IMG/VR virus record: IMGVR_UViG_2737471821_000005
Direction: 5' to 3' (one strand)
From: a virus
Lineage: Duplodnaviria; Heunggongvirae; Uroviricota; Caudoviricetes
Length of the DNA: 6,671 nt
Positions 1-6,671 of the stretch are shown in pieces (within the stretch, counting starts at the first letter, position 1; every line of letters starts with the position of its first letter). The position numbers and the translations under genes are program-made. The notes under the pieces are model-generated. The model was not told the DNA's origin and made no database searches. It saw only the letters and a list, made by a program, of their open reading frames with translations.

Positions 1-1053
1 TTACGGGGTAATGCCAACCGCTGCCGCCACTTTGTCGCCACTTGGCAGCGTTGCCAGAGGATTGAAACGGAGCGCCGTTTCCAGATGATCCGGTGCCAGA
101 TGAGCGTAACGCATAGTCATTTTTATATCGTGATGTCCGAGGATTTTTTGCAAAGCAAGGATATTTCCACCCGACATCATGAAATGCGCCGCAAACGTAT
201 GGCGCAGAACGTGTGTCAGTTGACCGCGAGGGAGCACGATTGACGTTTTTTCCATCACGGATAAAAATTGAAAATAGCAGTCTGTGAAGAAATTGAACCC
301 ATCAAGCGCCATGATCTCTTCATAAAGCTCTTTACTGATAGGGATGCTTCTGTTTTTCTTCCCCTTCGTTCTTACAAAGGTAATTCGGTATTTAGTCACC
401 TGTGATCGGGTAAGGTTTATTGCTTCTCGCCAGCGTGCGCCTGTGCTTAAGCATATCTTGACTACCAGTGCCAGAATTGGGTCCTGACGTTTGCAATCAG
501 CCAGCAGTTCAACAATCTGCTCATGGGTAAGCCATGCCATCTCTTTTTCTGCGATGGTGAATTTTCGCATGTTCTCCAGTGGGTTTGGATACGACCATTC
601 GCCCAGGCGGGATAGTTCGCTAAAAACACTACTTAGATAGCTTTGCTCCAGGTTAATGGTGACCGGGCTTGCTCCTTTCTTCCATTTCTCGCTGAAGTAG
701 ATCTCACCTGTCAGGCGTTTATCTCGATAGTGGGCAAACATTTTAGAGGTGAGATCGGTTGCAAGGGGATTGCCCAGAGCGTCAACCATCAACAGCAATT
801 TATCATAGACATGCTGCCCAGCGGTTAGAGATTTACCATGTAGTTTGAACCATAGCTCAACCACGTCTTTCAGTGTTCGACGATCCACTGATTCTCCCAG
901 CCAGGGCTTTGCTTCGGTTTCTTCCATCGTATGGCGCTCAAAAGCCAGAGCTTCGCCTTTGGTGGCGAATTGTTTACGCACACGACGCCCACTACGTCCG
1001 GCGGGGTAACATTCGCAAAGCCATTTTCCTGTGGTGAGTTTTCGTACTGCCAT
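1..1053 (-). CDS. int: Tyrosine-type site-specific integrase, P2/186 family
   Basis: 350-aa ORF from ATG at 1053-1051 to TAA at 3-1. A GGAGGG ribosome-binding site lies about 9 nt upstream on the minus strand. The translation has the C-terminal catalytic region typical of tyrosine recombinases (LSTGARWREA, HVLRHTFAAHFMMSGG, MRYAHLAPDHL with the terminal Tyr) and an N-terminus recalled as similar to P2/186 integrases. The track ORF begins 26 codons further upstream, but that extension has no ribosome-binding site. Confidence 0.9.
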   Translation of the reverse strand: MAVRKLTTGKWLCECYPAGRSGRRVRKQFATKGEALAFERHTMEETEAKPWLGESVDRRTLKDVVELWFKLHGKSLTAGQHVYDKLLLMVDALGNPLATDLTSKMFAHYRDKRLTGEIYFSEKWKKGASPVTINLEQSYLSSVFSELSRLGEWSYPNPLENMRKFTIAEKEMAWLTHEQIVELLADCKRQDPILALVVKICLSTGARWREAINLTRSQVTKYRITFVRTKGKKNRSIPISKELYEEIMALDGFNFFTDCYFQFLSVMEKTSIVLPRGQLTHVLRHTFAAHFMMSGGNILALQKILGHHDIKMTMRYAHLAPDHLETALRFNPLATLPSGDKVAAAVGITP

Positions 1054-1239
1054 AAAAAATGCCCTCCAATAGAGAGCATTTTTACTGTATATATAACCAG
1101 TGTCAATGTATGAAATCCTGCGACCATACATCTCACTGAAGCCATAATGAAGTTGGCTATTTTTTGCTATGTGAGTATGTGACTTTTGCGGTTAGCCTGC
1201 GGCTCATTGTTATATTAGGCGCAGATATAAAAGCAAAAT

Positions 1240-1431
1240 TTATCGCGAGTTTTTAGTACAGATTTTTTTTGATTTACTAATAGTTCCATCATTGCAAACG
1301 AACTTTCCATCGGAGGTACAGTGAGAGACACCTCCCTTTTTCCCAGAACAAGGATAATTTTTAGCATAGGTAGTTAGTGGGTTTAATAACAAAGAGCATG
1401 ATAAAACCACAAAAAATACCTTACCAAGCAT
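1240..1431 (-). CDS. Small secreted cysteine-rich cationic protein (hypothetical; 63-aa precursor)
   Basis: ATG at 1431-1429 preceded by GGAGG about 5 nt upstream; it starts 15 bp after the cI stop codon on the same strand. The N-terminus looks like a Sec signal peptide (MLGK + [12 protein letters not shown] + NPLTTYA) with a likely cleavage after TYA. The predicted mature ~40-aa peptide has 4 Cys and a net charge of about +7. No family recognised. Confidence 0.5.
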
Positions 1432-1446
1432 AGTTTCCTCCCGGTA

Positions 1447-2016
1447 TTACCTAACGTACTTAATTGTTAAACTTATAATTTTCCCAATTATTTCAACATC
1501 TTCTATCTTGCACTCGAAGGCTCTGCTTCCACCTTCAACGAAGATTCTTCCACCGGGTAAACGAGTAATATCGCGGATTGTTATTTCGCCATCAATACTT
1601 ATTACCCATTTACCGTCACGTATATCATCAAATTCTTTATCACAAATAAATTCAGAATTGTTATCTGTGATGACAAAAGGTTTTTTAAACGTAGAGGGTA
1701 GAAATCCCTTATCAAAAATATAAAAACCGTCTTCACGCAAGGCACCATCAGATAATACATATTTAGCAACTTCCATAGTATTTGTATTACCTGAAGTTTG
1801 CTTTGAACCATGTCCGGTTGTGAGCCAATTAAGCGAGGTGCCCGTTTCAAGGGCGCACTGGATTACCCATTCTGCTGGGAATGAGTCACGCATGTAGCGT
1901 GTGGCGAGTGTACTTTTAGAGATTCCTAAATGATCGCACAACGCCTGTCGAGTTTTGAATCCATAAGCTTCTACCATGCGCTCTATAGCGCCTCGTCCGC
2001 CTTTCTCCAAATTCAT
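1447..2016 (-). CDS. cI: 186-type CI immunity repressor
   Basis: The N-terminal segment AIERMVEAYGFKTRQALCDHLGISKSTLATRYMRDSFPAEWVIQCALETGTSLNWLTTG matches the phage-186 CI helix-turn-helix domain as recalled (EAYGF...CALETG...WLLTG). Length (~190 aa) and position between int and a divergent apl/cII operon fit. Start chosen at ATG 2016-2014 because GGAG sits 5 nt upstream; the track's GTG at 2022 lies too close to that GGAG. Confidence 0.85.
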   Translation of the reverse strand: MNLEKGGRGAIERMVEAYGFKTRQALCDHLGISKSTLATRYMRDSFPAEWVIQCALETGTSLNWLTTGHGSKQTSGNTNTMEVAKYVLSDGALREDGFYIFDKGFLPSTFKKPFVITDNNSEFICDKEFDDIRDGKWVISIDGEITIRDITRLPGGRIFVEGGSRAFECKIEDVEIIGKIISLTIKYVR

Positions 2017-2040
2017 GGTCACTCCAAGTGAACTTTTATC

Positions 2041-2069
2041 TTGACGATTTCACTGTGCGATCGTATGTT
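2041..2069 (+). promoter_or_regulatory. Candidate rightward sigma70 promoter (pR-like lytic promoter): -35 TTGACG, 17-bp spacer, -10 TATGTT
   Basis: TTGACG at 2041-2046 and TATGTT at 2064-2069 with exactly 17 bp between them, in the cI-apl intergenic region and oriented toward apl/cII. Predicted transcription start near 2076, about 66 nt before the apl ATG. Confidence 0.45.
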
Positions 2070-2096
2070 TATGGTGTTCACAAAATACAAACGATC
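2059..2096. promoter_or_regulatory. Imperfect inverted repeat GATCGTATGT / ACAAACGATC (9 of 10 complementary) bracketing the pR-like -10 and start site; candidate repressor operator
   Basis: Left arm 2059-2068 and right arm 2087-2096, separated by 18 bp. The left arm overlaps the -10 hexamer. Each arm contains a GATC site. Confidence 0.3.
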
Positions 2097-2141
2097 CGTA
2101 TTCGTCCTGATTAATCATCATTAAACGAGGAATGTTGCATC

Positions 2142-2363
2142 ATGAGACCTAACATTTCAATCACTCTTACCACGCCTCATGTGACTATTGAACGCTATAG
2201 CGAGCTGACAGGGCTGTCCATCGATACCATCAATGACATGTTGGCTGACGGACGCCTTATCCGTCACCGTCTGCGCAAAGATAAAAAACGTGAAAAAGTG
2301 ATGATCAACATAGCAGCCATGACCGTTGATGCGCTTTCAGAATGCAATCTAAACCTTAATTAG
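2142..2363 (+). CDS. Apl/Cox-like small DNA-binding regulator and excisionase (hypothetical by position and HTH-like segment)
   Basis: 73-aa ORF, first gene rightward of the switch and divergent from cI. Contains a helix-turn-helix-like segment ([23 protein letters not shown]) and a basic C-terminal stretch. A GAGGA motif lies about 11 nt upstream of the ATG. Confidence 0.6.
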
Positions 2364-2395
2364 TTCGATTCTGAAATACATCAGAGGCATTGACC

Positions 2396-2905
2396 ATGTT
2401 TGATTACCAAGTTTCCAAACATCCACATTTTGATGAAGCCTGTCGTGCATTCGCATTGCGCCACAACCTAGTGCAACTGGCAGAACGTGCAGGCATGAAT
2501 GTGCAGATTCTGCGGAACAAGCTGAACCCAGCTCAACCTCATTTATTAACCGCACCAGAAATCTGGTTGCTTACCGATCTGACTGAAGATTCAACGCTGG
2601 TAGATGGCTTTCTGGCACAGATTCACTGCCTGCCATGTGTACCGATTAATGAGGTGGCAAAAGAGAAACTGCCGCATTACGTCATGAGTGCAACTGCAGA
2701 GATAGGGCGTGTCGCGGCAGGTGCGGTTTCTGGCGATGTAAAAACCAGTGCAGGCCGTCGTGATGCGATCAGCAGCATTAACTCTGTTACACGACTGATG
2801 GCGCTGGCTGCTGTTTCATTGCAGGCCCGTTTACAGGCTAATCCTGCGATGGCGAGTGCAGTTGATACCGTGACTGGCCTCGGTGCTTCATTCGGTTTGC
2901 TGTGA
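2396..2905 (+). CDS. cII: CII-like lysogeny-establishment regulator (phage 186 CII family)
   Basis: The translation from ATG 2396 ([24 protein letters not shown]...[26 protein letters not shown]...GASFGLL) closely matches my recollection of 186 CII along its whole length. AGAGG lies 8 nt upstream. The track's TTG start at 2390 adds two codons and is less likely. Confidence 0.8.
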
Positions 2906-2912
2906 GGTGCTT

Positions 2913-3113
2913 ATGCTGACGAAAGAACCATCATTTGCATCGCTGCTGGTAAAACAAAGTCCGGCAATGCACTACGGTCACGGCTGGATCATGGGTGAGG
3001 ATGGTAAACGCTGGCATCCGTGCCGTTCACAAGATGAATTGCTGGCAGAACTATCTACGAAAAAACGGGGGAACAAATGGCTATTGAAGGCGCTGCGGCG
3101 ACTGTTCCATTAA
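2913..3113 (+). CDS. Hypothetical small basic early protein (66 aa)
   Basis: ATG at 2913 with GAGGTG just upstream, starting 8 nt after the cII stop. The track ORF begins at a GTG inside cII, which I regard as a spurious extension. No family recognised; occupies the slot that fil holds in 186. Confidence 0.45.
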   Translation: MLTKEPSFASLLVKQSPAMHYGHGWIMGEDGKRWHPCRSQDELLAELSTKKRGNKWLLKALRRLFH

Positions 3114-3418
3114 GACCCGGTGAACGCCTGAATGGACTTAATCATATTGCGGAGTTAAGGGCGAAAGTTTTTGGTTTGAATATTGAGTCAGAGCTTGAGC
3201 GGTTTATTAAAGATATGCGTGATCCTCGGGATATCAATAATGAACAAAATAAACGGGCACTGGCTGCCATATTCTTTATGGCAAAAATTCCAGCTGAACG
3301 TCATAGCATCAGCATTAATGAGCTGACCACTGACGAAAAGCGGGAGTTGATTAAAGCAATGAATCATTTTCGTGCAGTGGTGAGCTTATTTCCCAGACGG
3401 CTAACCATGCCGAATTAA
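3077..3418 (+). CDS. Hypothetical early protein (113 aa)
   Basis: ATG at 3077 preceded by CGGGGGA about 4 nt upstream. It overlaps the 3' end of the previous gene by 37 nt in another frame. No family recognised. Confidence 0.5.
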   Translation: MAIEGAAATVPLRPGERLNGLNHIAELRAKVFGLNIESELERFIKDMRDPRDINNEQNKRALAAIFFMAKIPAERHSISINELTTDEKRELIKAMNHFRAVVSLFPRRLTMPN

Positions 3419-3485
3419 CCAACTAATGAAATTAATGGCGTAAACCCGCCGGGCATCCCTTTATCTAAATTCAGGAGAATTGCTT

Positions 3486-3719
3486 ATGCGTAATATTGAA
3501 ACCCTCACGACCAAAACCGGACCGGATGATGCAGGTCTTAATCTTTTACTGACAGAGGCTCGTCTGGAAGAACGCCGGGCAAGGGCTGAAGCAATGGCTG
3601 CTCGCCTCGATAGCCTGGCGTGTCATATCACCTCCCGCCAGCTAAACCACGTCGAAGCGGCAGAACTGCTGCGTGTGACTGCTGAAGCAATCCAGAACGA
3701 AGCGCAGGAGATCCACTGA
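3486..3719 (+). CDS. Hypothetical small acidic, probably helical protein (77 aa)
   Basis: ATG at 3486 with AGGAGA 7 nt upstream. Its stop overlaps the next start (TGATG). No family recognised with confidence. Confidence 0.55.
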   Translation: MRNIETLTTKTGPDDAGLNLLLTEARLEERRARAEAMAARLDSLACHITSRQLNHVEAAELLRVTAEAIQNEAQEIH

Positions 3720-3946
3720 TGGCTGATGCAATGGATCTCGTACAGCAGCGCGTTGAAGAAGAACGCCAACGCCATATCCGTGCTGCCCGTGCCAAAACGC
3801 CGGGCGTGTCCCGCGTGCTTTGCGTTGAGTGTGAAGCGCCAATTCCGCCAGCACGCCGCCGTGCCATTCCGGGTGTGCAGCTTTGCATTACCTGTCAGGA
3901 AATCGCAGAGCTGAAAGGCAAACATTACAACGGAGGTGCTGTATGA
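3719..3946 (+). CDS. TraR/DksA-family C4-type zinc-finger protein
   Basis: 75-aa protein with two Cys pairs spaced as in TraR/DksA zinc fingers (CVECEAPIPPARRRAIPGVQLCITCQ). Start and stop overlap the neighbouring genes. Confidence 0.75.
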   Translation: MADAMDLVQQRVEEERQRHIRAARAKTPGVSRVLCVECEAPIPPARRRAIPGVQLCITCQEIAELKGKHYNGGAV

Positions 3947-4797
3947 GCACCATCCTGAAATGGGCAGGAAATAAAACCGCCATAATGTCCGAACTGAAAA
4001 AGCATCTTCCTGCTGGCCCGCGACTGGTTGAACCTTTCGCGGGTTCCTGTGCAGTGATGATGGAGACGGATTACCCCAGCTATCTTGTTGCGGATATTAA
4101 TCCTGATTTAATCAACCTCTATAAAAAGGTTGCTGCTGATTGTGAGTCGTTTATATCTCGTGCCAGAGCTTTATTTGAGGAAGCAAACAGGGAGGTGGCT
4201 TATTACAACATAAGGCAGGAGTTTAATTACTCCACTGAAATTACTGATTTCATGAAAGCGGTATATTTCCTGTATCTCAATCGTCACGGTTACCGTGGTT
4301 TATGTCGCTATAACAAGAGCGGGCATTTCAACATTCCCTACGGTAATTATAAAAATCCGTATTTCCCTGAAAAAGAAATTCGCGCATTTGCAGAGAAAGC
4401 CCAGCGGGCAACGTTTATCTGCGCCAGCTTTGATGAAACGCTGGCGATGTTGAAGGTGGGGGATGTGGTGTATTGCGATCCGCCTTATGACGGTACGTTT
4501 TCCGGCTATCACACTGATGGTTTCACTGAAGATGATCAGTATCACCTGGCATCTATTCTTGAACATCGGTCATCAGAAGGACATCCGGTCATTGTTTCTA
4601 ACAGTAACACGTCTTTGACCCGGTCCCTTTATCGTAATTTCACTCACCACTACATCAGGGCGAAACGCAGCATCGGCGTTGCAGCGGGGGAGGGAAAATT
4701 TGCAACAGAGATGATTGCCACTAAATCTGCTAATTGGTTTAGTGCCGATTTTAGTAGGGGACGTGACTCTACTGTTATTTTCGGGGTGCAAGTGTGA
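3943..4797 (+). CDS. dam: Dam-family DNA adenine-N6 methyltransferase (GATC-specific family)
   Basis: 284-aa protein from ATG 3943 with GGAGGTG upstream. It has the N-terminal AdoMet-binding motif (ILKWAGNK...[10 protein letters not shown]), the catalytic DPPY motif (VYCDPPYDG), and [16 protein letters not shown], all in the order I recall for E. coli Dam. The track ORF's 20-codon 5' extension lacks a ribosome-binding site. Confidence 0.9.
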
Positions 4798-5624
4798 AAG
4801 AAATGCACCACGGAATTCATCATTTCCATGGGACGCCTGTCTGGGGAAGTGCTGGCGACGTTCATCGTATTGCGGTGAGCGGAGCTGGCGCTTTCGTCTC
4901 CTATGTACGACCAGATCAGATTGCGGCGTCCATTCAGCACGCTCAGGTCGTCGGCATTGATAACGGCGCATTTTCTGCATGGGTGCGTGGGCTAAAAATT
5001 AACTGGAGTGATTTTTATAAATGGCTCCTGAACTATTACCACCATCCTAAGGTCGCTTTTTTTGTCATTCCTGATGTTGTGGACGGAGGTGAACGTGACA
5101 ATGATGCCCTGATAAACGAAGTTCCGAAAATGTTCTACGGGAAGGCAACTCCCGTCTGGCATCTGCACGAGTCAATCGAGCGGCTTATCGAGCTATGTCG
5201 TGAATGGCCTCGTGTCTGCTTTGGATCGTCTGGTGAATATGCGGCTATCAGAACTGCGCACTGGCATCGTCGTATGCAGGACGCTTTTGAAGCAATTTAT
5301 TGCCGACACAATTTCAAAACAGCTGTTCATGGTTTGCGCATGCTTGACGGTCGTGTGTTGGGAAATTACCCACTGGCGACTGCCGACAGTACAAATCTTG
5401 CCTGCAATGTCCCCAAATTTAATAGCAAATATCCTGAGCTGACGCGGGCTATTCAGGAGGCTGAGTATTCGCGCAATCTGACGGAAAAGGAGCTGAAAGC
5501 TGTCATTCTGAAAAACCGTTGCGCAATTTTAAAAGGTGCAATTGAAGCTGTTCGCCCACCTTCAGTTTCTGATTGGCTGTCGAATGGTTTGCAGCCTTCA
5601 CAGCTCGAACTGGAGATTGCGTAA
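4794..5624 (+). CDS. TGT-fold protein lacking the zinc subdomain; candidate DpdA-like DNA 7-deazaguanine transglycosylase
   Basis: 276-aa ORF whose GTG start overlaps the dam stop (GTGA), with GGGGTG 5 nt upstream. Motifs appear in TGT order: FHGTPVWG (cf. FMPVGTYG), [10 protein letters not shown] (cf. DSGGFQ, first catalytic Asp), [10 protein letters not shown] (cf. MIFDEC, substrate Asp), CFGSSGEY (cf. GGLAVGE), HGLRMLDG (cf. LMGVG), ATADSTNLA (cf. FDCV, nucleophile Asp). There is no CxCxxC...H zinc cluster. Being a real gene is high confidence; the function is moderate confidence. Confidence 0.55.
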
Positions 5625-5914
5625 TGAGCTACAGCTATTCCTGGAATGCTGAGAAAAAAGCAATCAATCCTTACGTAGAGACAGAAGAGCAATCTTCAGT
5701 TTCTGCGCTTTCAAACCTGATCGCTCTGTACGCTGCCGATAACGAGCAGGAACAGCTGCGCCGCGAGGCACTGAGTGATCAGGTCTGGGAGCGTTATTTC
5801 TTTAATGAATCCCGTGATCCTGTCCAGCGCGAAATGGAGCAGGATAAGCTCATTAGTCGGGCAAAGCTGGCGCATGAGCAGCAGCGTTTTAATCCAGATA
5901 TGGTCATTCTGGCG
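5624..5914 (+). pseudogene. 5' portion (97 codons) of a phage early gene interrupted by IS26; possibly the replication initiator by position
   Basis: ATG at 5624 overlaps the previous stop (TAATG). The reading frame runs straight into the IS26 terminal repeat at 5915, and the remaining 70 codons of the track ORF 5573..6076 are translated IS26 sequence. In P2/186-like phages the gene after the TraR-like region is the replication gene A. Confidence 0.5.
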
Positions 5915-5928
5915 GGCACTGTTGCAAA
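5915..5928. repeat. IS26 terminal inverted repeat (the end nearest the transposase stop codon)
   Basis: Exact GGCACTGTTGCAAA at the element boundary. Confidence 0.85.
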
Positions 5929-5966: not shown

Positions 5967-6671
5967 TTACATTTCAAAAACTCTGCTTACCAGGCGCATT
6001 TCGCCCAGGGGATCACCATAATAAAATGCTGAGGCCTGGCCTTTGCGTAGTGCACGCATCACCTCAATACCTTTGATGGTGGCGTAAGCCGTCTTCATGG
6101 ATTTAAATCCCAGCGTGGCGCCGATTATCCGTTTCAGTTTGCCATGATCGCATTCAATCACGTTGTTCCGGTACTTAATCTGTCGGTGTTCAACGTCAGA
6201 CGGGCACCGGCCTTCGCGTTTGAGCAGAGCAAGCGCGCGACCATAGGCGGGCGCTTTATCCGTGTTGATGAATCGCGGGATCTGCCACTTCTTCACGTTG
6301 TTGAGGATTTTACCCAGAAACCGGTATGCAGCTTTGCTGTTACGACGGGAGGAGAGATAAAAATCGACAGTGCGGCCCCGGCTGTCGACGGCCCGGTACA
6401 GATACGCCCAGCGGCCATTGACCTTCACGTAGGTTTCATCCATGTGCCACGGGCAAAGATCGGAAGGGTTACGCCAGTACCAGCGCAGCCGTTTTTCCAT
6501 TTCAGGCGCATAACGCTGAACCCAGCGGTAAATCGTGGAGTGATCGACATTCACTCCGCGTTCAGCCAGCATCTCCTGCAGCTCACGGTAACTGATGCCG
6601 TATTTGCAGTACCAGCGTACGGCCCACAGAATGATGTCACGCTGAAAATGCCGGCCTTTGAATGGGTTCAT
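5967..6671 (-). CDS. tnp26: IS26 transposase Tnp26 (DDE transposase, IS6 family)
   Basis: 234-aa translation ([39 protein letters not shown]...LVSRVFEM) matches Tnp26 as I recall it. Its ATG is the last three bases of the window (6671-6669). Confidence 0.95.

Follow-up and report, generated by a model that had tools for sequence, protein, structure and literature searches.

A repressor-linked gene for a small cationic, four-cysteine peptide of the YdcA family in a 186-like Escherichia coli prophage

The DNA analyzed here, IMG/VR record IMGVR_UViG_2737471821_000005 (6,671 nucleotides, the whole of which is called the window below), forms the left-hand end of an Escherichia coli prophage of the 186-like type (Peduoviridae), and the subject of this report is a gene of 63 codons that lies on its minus strand between the repressor gene cI and the integrase gene int. 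An initial annotation, made from the sequence alone, placed this gene 15 bp downstream of cI on the same strand behind a strong ribosome-binding site of its own, and both points hold: the cI stop codon ends at position 1447, leaving a gap of 15 nt (1432-1446), and GGGAGG stands 5 nt from the ATG. The description of the gene as an insertion between cI and int is correct when the prophage is set against phage 186, in whose lysogenic operon (pL/pE - cI - int) the cI stop codon overlaps the start of int with nothing between the two. The prophage of the window shares with 186 the architecture of the switch (cI, apl, cII, and fil) and the gene order, but here the 63-amino acid (aa) gene, about 190 bp of spacer, and a hairpin stand between cI and int. 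On the plus strand of the window are apl/cox, cII, fil, and other genes of the early set, one of them for a Dam methylase.

There are 67 open reading frames (ORFs) of at least 30 aa in the window, so that a frame of 63 aa is by itself no proof of a gene. The frame is short and AT-rich, with a G+C content (GC) of 0.35 versus 0.48 for int and the early genes, and in many genomes its product still has the label "hypothetical" from the Prokaryotic Genome Annotation Pipeline (PGAP); these features would suit a spurious or decaying ORF that has no function and is carried along with the immunity region. Selection on the frame speaks against this. Among 84 related loci two main alleles are found, and the 12 nucleotide differences between them comprise 11 synonymous changes and one conservative replacement, K24R, giving a ratio of nonsynonymous to synonymous substitution rates (dN/dS) of about 0.02 in the frame of the peptide. 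The strong ribosome-binding site argues in the same direction, as do the recovery of 437 cluster representatives from alpha-, beta-, and gamma-proteobacteria, in whose domains 9 positions are invariant and 4 nearly so, and the retention of the gene even in defective prophages, namely those of BL21 and of the window, in which gene A is broken by IS26. The spurious-frame explanation, to which we give almost no credence, is effectively refuted already by the conservation data, and it is virtually certain that the peptide gene is a real gene of the YdcA family.

This family is represented by the NCBIfam PRK10040 models (NF007462-NF007464), Pfam PF27300, and PHROG 6000. With NF007463 (PRK10040.1-2) the peptide scores 116.1 bits against a cut-off of 93, the match running over residues 5-63 and covering profile positions 1-58 of 58. 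With NF007462, the equivalog model of YdcA from E. coli K-12, it reaches 68 bits and remains below the cut-off of 118; it therefore belongs to a separate paralogous subfamily and is not the orthologue of the K-12 protein. PHROG 6000 (function unknown) is also matched, and PF27300.1 is precomputed on the cluster representative P0001, which is 97% identical to the peptide, and on nearly all homologues. A copy of Pfam that predates PF27300 gave no real match for the peptide, only a GULLO2-like one (E 0.068). All of the invariant columns of the family are present in the peptide (P27, C28, S29, K32, G33, G34, C38, F44, C46, D48, G49, S52, S54, K55, and C58). For the RefSeq entry of the peptide, WP_001321204.1, recent PGAP annotations use the label "YdcA family protein" where older ones had "hypothetical protein," and the identical gene is annotated in ATCC 8739, BL21, and Tig228. 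Neither the gene nor its family is new as an object, since databases already include both. The earlier statement that no characterized family could be recognized needs to be corrected, as the peptide falls into a named, though functionally uncharacterized, family (NF007463, PHROG 6000, and PF27300).

The K-12 member, YdcA (b1419, 57 aa), is described as a small protein of unknown function that bears a signal sequence and, by prediction, resides in the periplasm (PMC11340327). Over the mature domain it shares 78% identity with the prophage peptide, and both proteins consist of a Sec leader and a basic domain of 32-35 aa with four invariant cysteines and the pattern PCSGxKGG...FVCNDG..S.SKK.C. 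The settings of the two genes differ, as K-12 ydcA is chromosomal, lies between rydC/cybB and hokB, and has a sigma-S promoter upstream (PMC5493296), whereas the copy in the window is prophage cargo coupled to cI. The K-12 gene is up-regulated as cells enter a persister-rich phase. In E. coli W, a ydcA deletion mutant is sensitive to 300 mM 3-hydroxypropionate, and acid induction of ydcA is cited in the same study (PMC7642389). The genes named "ydcA" in the gonococcal genetic island and in F-like/ColV plasmids, which encode a putative adenine methylase, and ydcA of Bacillus subtilis, which encodes a rhomboid, are unrelated and were set aside as collisions of name.

When 1.84 billion cluster representatives were searched with a profile, which yielded the 437 relatives mentioned above (E ≤ 1e-3), 267 of these reached E ≤ 1e-10. 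Relatives are encoded on 441 viral contigs of IMG/VR and on 138 stretches from a collection with one genome per species, again from gamma-, beta-, and alpha-proteobacteria. Among 5426 complete E. coli genomes the region of the peptide gene is present in 632 and this type of cI in 648, so that roughly 12% of strains have the pair; the peptide gene is nearly always found beside this cI. The prophage of BL21 is a deletion remnant in which int, the peptide gene, and cI remain.

The initial annotation described a Sec-type leader followed by a mature peptide of about 40 aa with a charge of +7 and four cysteines, and hydropathy, the residues at -3 and -1, the charge count, and the statistics of the family all agree with this description. 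The leader was assigned by our own calculation on the sequence combined with these family-wide statistics. It begins with M-L-G-K, in which K4 is the basic residue, and continues with a hydrophobic core of 12 residues (best 9-residue Kyte-Doolittle mean 2.72) and the segment NPLTTYA, which is followed by K24; the predicted cleavage region has Pro at -6, Thr at -3, and Ala at -1. The predicted mature peptide has 40 aa, four cysteines, a mass of 4264.8 Da, and an isoelectric point of 9.6, and its charge follows from 8 Lys and 1 Arg less 2 Asp. Its motif, P-C-S-G-x-K-G-G ... C ... F-x-C-x-D-G-x-x-S-x-S-K-x-x-C, is invariant. Family members differ in the sequence of their first 20-25 residues, though not in the character of this segment, and the domain that follows it is almost invariant: a hydrophobic 9-mer with a mean hydropathy of at least 1.8 is found at the N terminus in 184 of 188 members, and a site with small residues at -3 and -1 in 183, mostly 2-3 residues ahead of the PCSG motif. 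The four cysteines of the domain are invariant across an alignment of 136 diverse domains, and in a periplasmic protein such conservation suggests disulfides. On these grounds the peptide is very probably exported and disulfide-bonded.

A fifth cysteine, C12, lies within the leader. A lipoprotein reading of the leader was considered on the criterion of a lipobox [LVI][ASTVI][GAS]C ending a leader some 15 residues long or longer and was rejected: V-L-S-C12 fails at the -2 position, the cysteine comes as early as residue 12, K4 falls within the stretch that must be uncharged, and C12 is not conserved in relatives.

The profile and structure searches that had been proposed for the peptide have now been run and gave, besides its identity as a YdcA protein, a probable similarity to one lobe of Dis2, a component of the type IV secretion system (T4SS) Dot/Icm of Legionella. 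AlphaFold2 models the peptide with a β-hairpin core, with a mean predicted local distance difference test (pLDDT) value of 80 for the mature 40-mer; in the full-length model values of 88-91 are reached in the core. The only near-significant sequence match in the PDB is Dis2 (Lpg0823, 7MUC chain AN), with E values of 3e-5 in phmmer, 9e-5 for a full-length profile, and 0.014 for a domain-only profile. When 350,542 chains were searched with Foldseek, Dis2 was the top match for both models (probability 0.75 and 0.84), with a template modeling (TM) score of 0.61 normalized by query length and 38% identity, at E values of 0.33-0.56 that are not significant. Alignment of the family profile with Dis2-like sequences in hhalign gave a probability of 80.6% and an E value of 1.3e-5, and one Dis2-like protein carries PF27300. 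The two proteins have in common the cysteine spacing and the motif GG...C...VCN[DN]G..S, and Dis2 is likewise periplasmic and disulfide-rich; it differs in having two tandem lobes and in being part of the Dot/Icm T4SS, whereas the prophage peptide is a single domain with four cysteines. These data suggest that the YdcA domain is homologous to a Dis2 lobe, which we consider likely.

Dis2 has two similar lobes with five visible disulfides and is situated in the periplasm near the outer membrane (PMC8486379), where it contacts DotC, DotD, and DotK (PMC12716638). Neither the assembly nor the function of the secretion system requires it, and it has been called specific to Legionella and devoid of structural homologues (PMC8486379, PMC12716638). 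No T4SS genes are found near the peptide gene, whose neighbors are cI and int. UniRef gives the exact protein encoded at window 1243-1431 the name "Conjugal transfer protein" (cluster entries A0A1Q6AUT9_ECOLX and A0A0J2AJ46_ECOLX). The name is curious beside the similarity to a T4SS component; no conjugation genes were found near the peptide gene, and the name is unsupported by the contexts seen. Matches of the peptide to plant proteinase inhibitors and low-density lipoprotein (LDL) receptor repeats among PDB sequences (E ≥ 0.05) were attributed to Cys/Gly composition, and a resemblance to DUF3761 (C-x-DG-x-x-S-x-S ... GGV) was considered and dropped, there being no match to it in Pfam up to E = 1.

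In Haemophilus phages HP2 and S2 an unannotated homologue of 60 aa, with a domain 78% identical to that of the window in the case of HP2, begins within the cI stop codon (TAATG), and the order of genes is cI, the peptide homologue, another secreted ORF, and int. Given this overlap, the gap of only 15 nt in the window, and a consensus scan that found neither a sigma-70-like promoter nor a terminator between cI and the peptide gene, co-transcription of the gene with cI is likely. The initial annotation had spoken of a cI/int transcript, and the second half of that expression is less secure than the first. Downstream of the peptide gene and its AT-rich spacer (GC 0.37 for the full interval 1054-1239), a hairpin with a predicted folding energy of -17.5 kcal/mol (z -5.2) ends at the int ATG, and the GGAGG of int is sequestered inside its 3' arm. 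With this hairpin and its U-run placed immediately in front of int, transcription need not continue from the peptide gene into int, and "cI-peptide transcript" is the safer term; the hairpin may terminate the cI transcript before int, gate the translation of int, or do both. The int module of Klebsiella phage 4LV2017 also contains the hairpin block, and an Rfam search of the window gave no match. A promoter-like TTGACA-17-AAAAAT, which the consensus scan did not report for the minus strand, overlaps the 5' arm of the hairpin (region 1054-1106, minus strand). When the gene is held against the strict definition of a moron, an autonomous transcription unit with its own promoter and terminator and a deviant base composition, its GC is low (0.35), there is no promoter consensus upstream, and the closest terminator-like hairpin is part of the int module; the gene resembles cargo contained within the transcript of cI. 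The features of the locus are collected in Table 1.

Table 1. Features of the window at and around the peptide gene
Feature	Position	Strand	Basis or remark
ydcA-like coding sequence, 63 codons + stop	1240..1431	-	ATG start; identical to RefSeq WP_001321204.1
Predicted Sec/signal peptidase I signal peptide, residues 1-23	1363..1431	-	Hydropathy, -3/-1 residues, family statistics
Predicted mature 40-aa cationic peptide	1243..1362	-	Alignments, AlphaFold2 model with β-hairpin, charge
Shine-Dalgarno sequence GGGAGG	1437..1442	-	5 nt before the ATG of the peptide gene; read from sequence
186-type CI repressor gene	1447..2022	-	Pfam Phage_CI_repr + Phage_CI_C; directly upstream of the peptide gene
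AT-rich spacer	1087..1239	-	Downstream of the peptide gene; homology to other int modules from about 1111
13-bp hairpin AAAAAUGCUCUCU/AUU/GGAGGGCAUUUUU	1054..1086	-	Flanked by A-tract and U-tract; ends at the int ATG
int, P2/186-type tyrosine integrase	1..1053	-	Pfam Int_N + Phage_integrase, PGAP coordinates; separate recombination module
IS26 copy	inverted repeat GGCACTGTTGCAAA at 5915; transposase 5967-6671	-	Transposase runs off the window end

The surroundings of the family were counted over a sample of 77-80 species-level loci. The immediate upstream neighbor is a 186-type CI gene in 7 of 78 (Escherichia, Yersinia, and Pasteurellaceae), the first downstream neighbor is an integrase gene in 6 of 77, and tblastn places 186-type immunity or integration genes nearby in 12 of 80. 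These 12 loci come from Escherichia, Buttiauxella, Yersinia, Atlantibacter, Citrobacter, and Haemophilus/Pasteurellaceae, and their proteins are 31-39% (CI) and 41-53% (Int) identical to those of the window; for the related Haemophilus prophages the values are 32-34% and 49%, as against 78% for the peptide domain of HP2, a contrast that speaks for selection on the peptide. Elsewhere the gene occurs in the chromosomal cybB-ydcA arrangement of Escherichia and Shigella (5 of 78 loci) and, in Moraxella and Acinetobacter phages, among the tail genes. Conversely, the place between cI and int can be filled by other genes: in Klebsiella phage 4LV2017 (L006 1851-3844) it has a hypothetical ORF of 349 aa adjoining a CI of 313 aa, and in enteropathogenic E. 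coli (EPEC) E2348/69 (L169 1-2441) a KAP-family P-loop NTPase gene together with a second, longer CI-like gene, none of these cargo genes being matched by PADLOC. The slot downstream of cI behaves as a hotspot for accessory genes, and the peptide gene is mobile accessory cargo whose coupling to 186-type repressors is recurrent and not exclusive. For the terms used to search it, a paper on P2-like regulatory regions (PMC3448106) yielded no mention of a gene in this slot.

The prophage itself is mosaic. Positions 1200-5900 are 99-100% identical to the prophage beside rcdA in E. coli ATCC 8739, and when the comparison is extended the identity is 94-98% in the int region (1-1113) and 99-100% from cI through gene A (1114-5914). 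The int of the window is 97% identical to that of Klebsiella phage 4LV2017, the match stopping at 1111, the same identity being seen for the int module against Klebsiella phages, and the two comparisons together indicate recombination at the boundary between int and the immunity region. The replication gene A (ORF start 5625) is cut by IS26 after about 97 codons, and this copy of the prophage is therefore defective; int, the peptide gene, and cI are all intact despite the insertion.

Most relatives of the peptide are single-domain proteins, and some contain two or three tandem copies. The mature part of the longer members invariably begins with the YdcA domain, after which comes a low-complexity linker rich in Ser, Thr, Pro, and Gly. 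Several of these proteins carry a nuclease: SNase in P0113 and a protein of locus L167, Endonuclease_NS in P0135 and a protein of locus L126, and a PLD-type nuclease in P0199, with a weak match to HNH in P0201 (E 0.009). An SNase gene also lies directly downstream of the YdcA-domain gene in locus L153, and a weaker SNase-like match (E 2.6e-5) is found downstream in L128. The secreted nucleases linked to the domain span three to four unrelated folds. Other partners are not nucleases, comprising a VasL (type VI secretion) domain in P0097 and long tails rich in Lys, Ala, and Glu. The net charge of the YdcA domain has a median of +4 and is at least +3 in 77% of domains. In many of the longer beta-proteobacterial relatives (P0096, P0133, P0140, P0056-P0062, and others), a second Cys-rich basic module, C-x-C-x5-C-T-G-P-R-G-G-x-Y-C-x4-G-x-K-S-Y, is seen at the C terminus; it scores 21.5-22.6 bits with Pfam PBCV_basic_adap, for which the cut-off is 20.4.

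We tentatively favor, at somewhat less than even chances, a reading in which the peptide is a periplasmic, disulfide-stapled cationic binding module that is made together with cI and whose ligand is a polyanion, probably DNA. The gene would be transcribed with cI from the lysogenic promoter, so that the product would be made continuously in lysogens, and the product would be exported by Sec and cleaved after Ala23. Its four invariant cysteines would then be oxidized in the periplasm, probably to two disulfides, to give a strongly basic β-hairpin mini-domain of 40 residues, the same module as one lobe of Dis2. This free-standing domain would bind an anionic ligand of the cell envelope, in the periplasm or outside the cell, for which nucleic acid is the favored candidate because in other bacteria the same domain stands at the N terminus of nucleases that are secreted and have several unrelated folds. 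The prophage copy, in occupying the ligand or its site, would alter a property of the envelope of the lysogen, a form of lysogenic conversion. The most attractive effect would be to hinder DNA that enters through the periplasm, whether from a superinfecting phage, by transformation, or by conjugation, and that the peptide excludes incoming DNA in this way we regard as doubtful. Still less probable is the broadest form of the proposal, in which the YdcA/Dis2 lobe would be an unrecognized periplasmic domain that binds nucleic acid or is associated with DNA conduits, and of which temperate P2/186/HP-type phages, from Escherichia to Haemophilus, would have tied a free-standing copy to the repressor gene, letting their lysogens intercept DNA on its way across the periplasm.

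Several points weigh against a polyanion- or DNA-binding function. Dis2 binds proteins and not DNA and makes no contact with the channel (PMC12716638). In the nuclease fusions a long linker parts the domain from the enzyme, a layout that fits an anchor equally well, and the links to nucleases are few, being seen in about 5 of the 150 best cluster representatives and in 4 of the 80 species loci. A chromosomal ydcA is already present in E. coli beside the prophage copy, and the PADLOC defense models gave no match for the peptide. Lastly, the only phenotype reported for K-12 ydcA, sensitivity to 3-hydroxypropionate, points to envelope or acid stress and not to DNA (PMC7642389).

The strongest competitor, which we hold to be rather unlikely, is that the domain serves as an adaptor or anchor of the envelope, docking on proteins near the outer membrane or on peptidoglycan and tethering the enzymes fused to it; the prophage copy would on this account tune an envelope machine or, like chromosomal ydcA, the tolerance of acid or organic acids, and both versions are included in that judgment. 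The situation of Dis2 close to the outer membrane, with contacts to three lipoprotein or outer-membrane components, would agree with this explanation, and so would the order of parts in the longer members, in which the domain opens the mature protein and a flexible S/T/P/G-rich linker comes next, the layout of an anchor. The non-nuclease partners (the VasL domain and the K/A/E-rich tails), the 3-hydroxypropionate sensitivity of the E. coli W deletion mutant with the cited acid induction (PMC7642389), and the sigma-S promoter upstream of K-12 ydcA are further points in its favor. The binding partners, however, are known in Legionella alone, and Dis2 is itself dispensable. An anchor leaves the recurrence of unrelated nuclease folds as partners unexplained, and the strong, conserved positive charge suggests an anionic ligand that is not a protein.

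A second competitor, improbable in our judgment, is superinfection exclusion of the kind found in phages of Gram-positive hosts, in which the peptide would block the injection of DNA by binding tape-measure or ejection proteins of the incoming phage and not DNA itself. Sie2009 of lactococcal phages is an exported exclusion protein encoded between integrase and repressor. Ltp of Streptococcus thermophilus phage TP-J34 is an exported lipoprotein encoded in the same position (PMC3952083). The repressor-integrase position and the exported product of the present gene match the Ltp layout, and a slot with variable cargo would also be consistent with such a role. The likeness is confined to position in the lysogeny module and to an exported or surface product: the hosts of Ltp and Sie2009 are Gram-positive, Ltp is a lipoprotein whereas the peptide is not, and there is no relation of sequence or fold, searches of Pfam, PHROG, and PADLOC having revealed no similarity to such proteins. 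In particular, neither the functional PHROG categories nor PADLOC matched the peptide to exclusion proteins. The family moreover has chromosomal, non-phage copies (the cybB-ydcA loci) and copies in tail regions, and the near-invariance of the sequence from host to host speaks against its having co-evolved with a diversity of phage targets.

A secreted antimicrobial, bacteriocin-like, or toxin peptide directed against competitors, a function raised in the initial annotation, has a defensin-like composition in its favor (small, cationic at +7, four cysteines), together with a weak similarity to Cys-rich plant proteinase inhibitors that, at E values of 0.2-2, lies above any threshold of significance; it is very unlikely, for the leader is of the Sec and not the double-glycine type, no gene for immunity, maturation, or an exporter accompanies the peptide gene (its flanks are cI and int), no route across the outer membrane is evident, and among the members of the family are a gene of the E. 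coli core chromosome and, probably, a structural subunit of a secretion machine.

What this analysis adds to a family already in the databases is modest and consists of the coupling to the repressor, the unannotated copy in HP2/S2, the probable kinship with Dis2, and the nuclease fusions. The peptide gene is present in about one of eight complete E. coli genomes, including BL21 and ATCC 8739, and its product is presumably made constitutively there. The position after the repressor is conserved from enterobacterial to Haemophilus prophages even though the repressors are only about 33% identical. If the kinship with Dis2 is true, it would provide a solved structure for the fold, and the view of Dis2 as specific to Legionella would have to be revised. 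The repeated fusions to secreted nucleases lead to a testable hypothesis of polyanion or DNA binding for a family that contains an uncharacterized y-gene of K-12. Interception of DNA, if true, would define a new, very small class of factors for the exclusion of superinfection, transformation, or conjugation, and would for the first time offer a way into the function of E. coli YdcA and of Legionella Dis2. Together, these additions make the YdcA family experimentally approachable.

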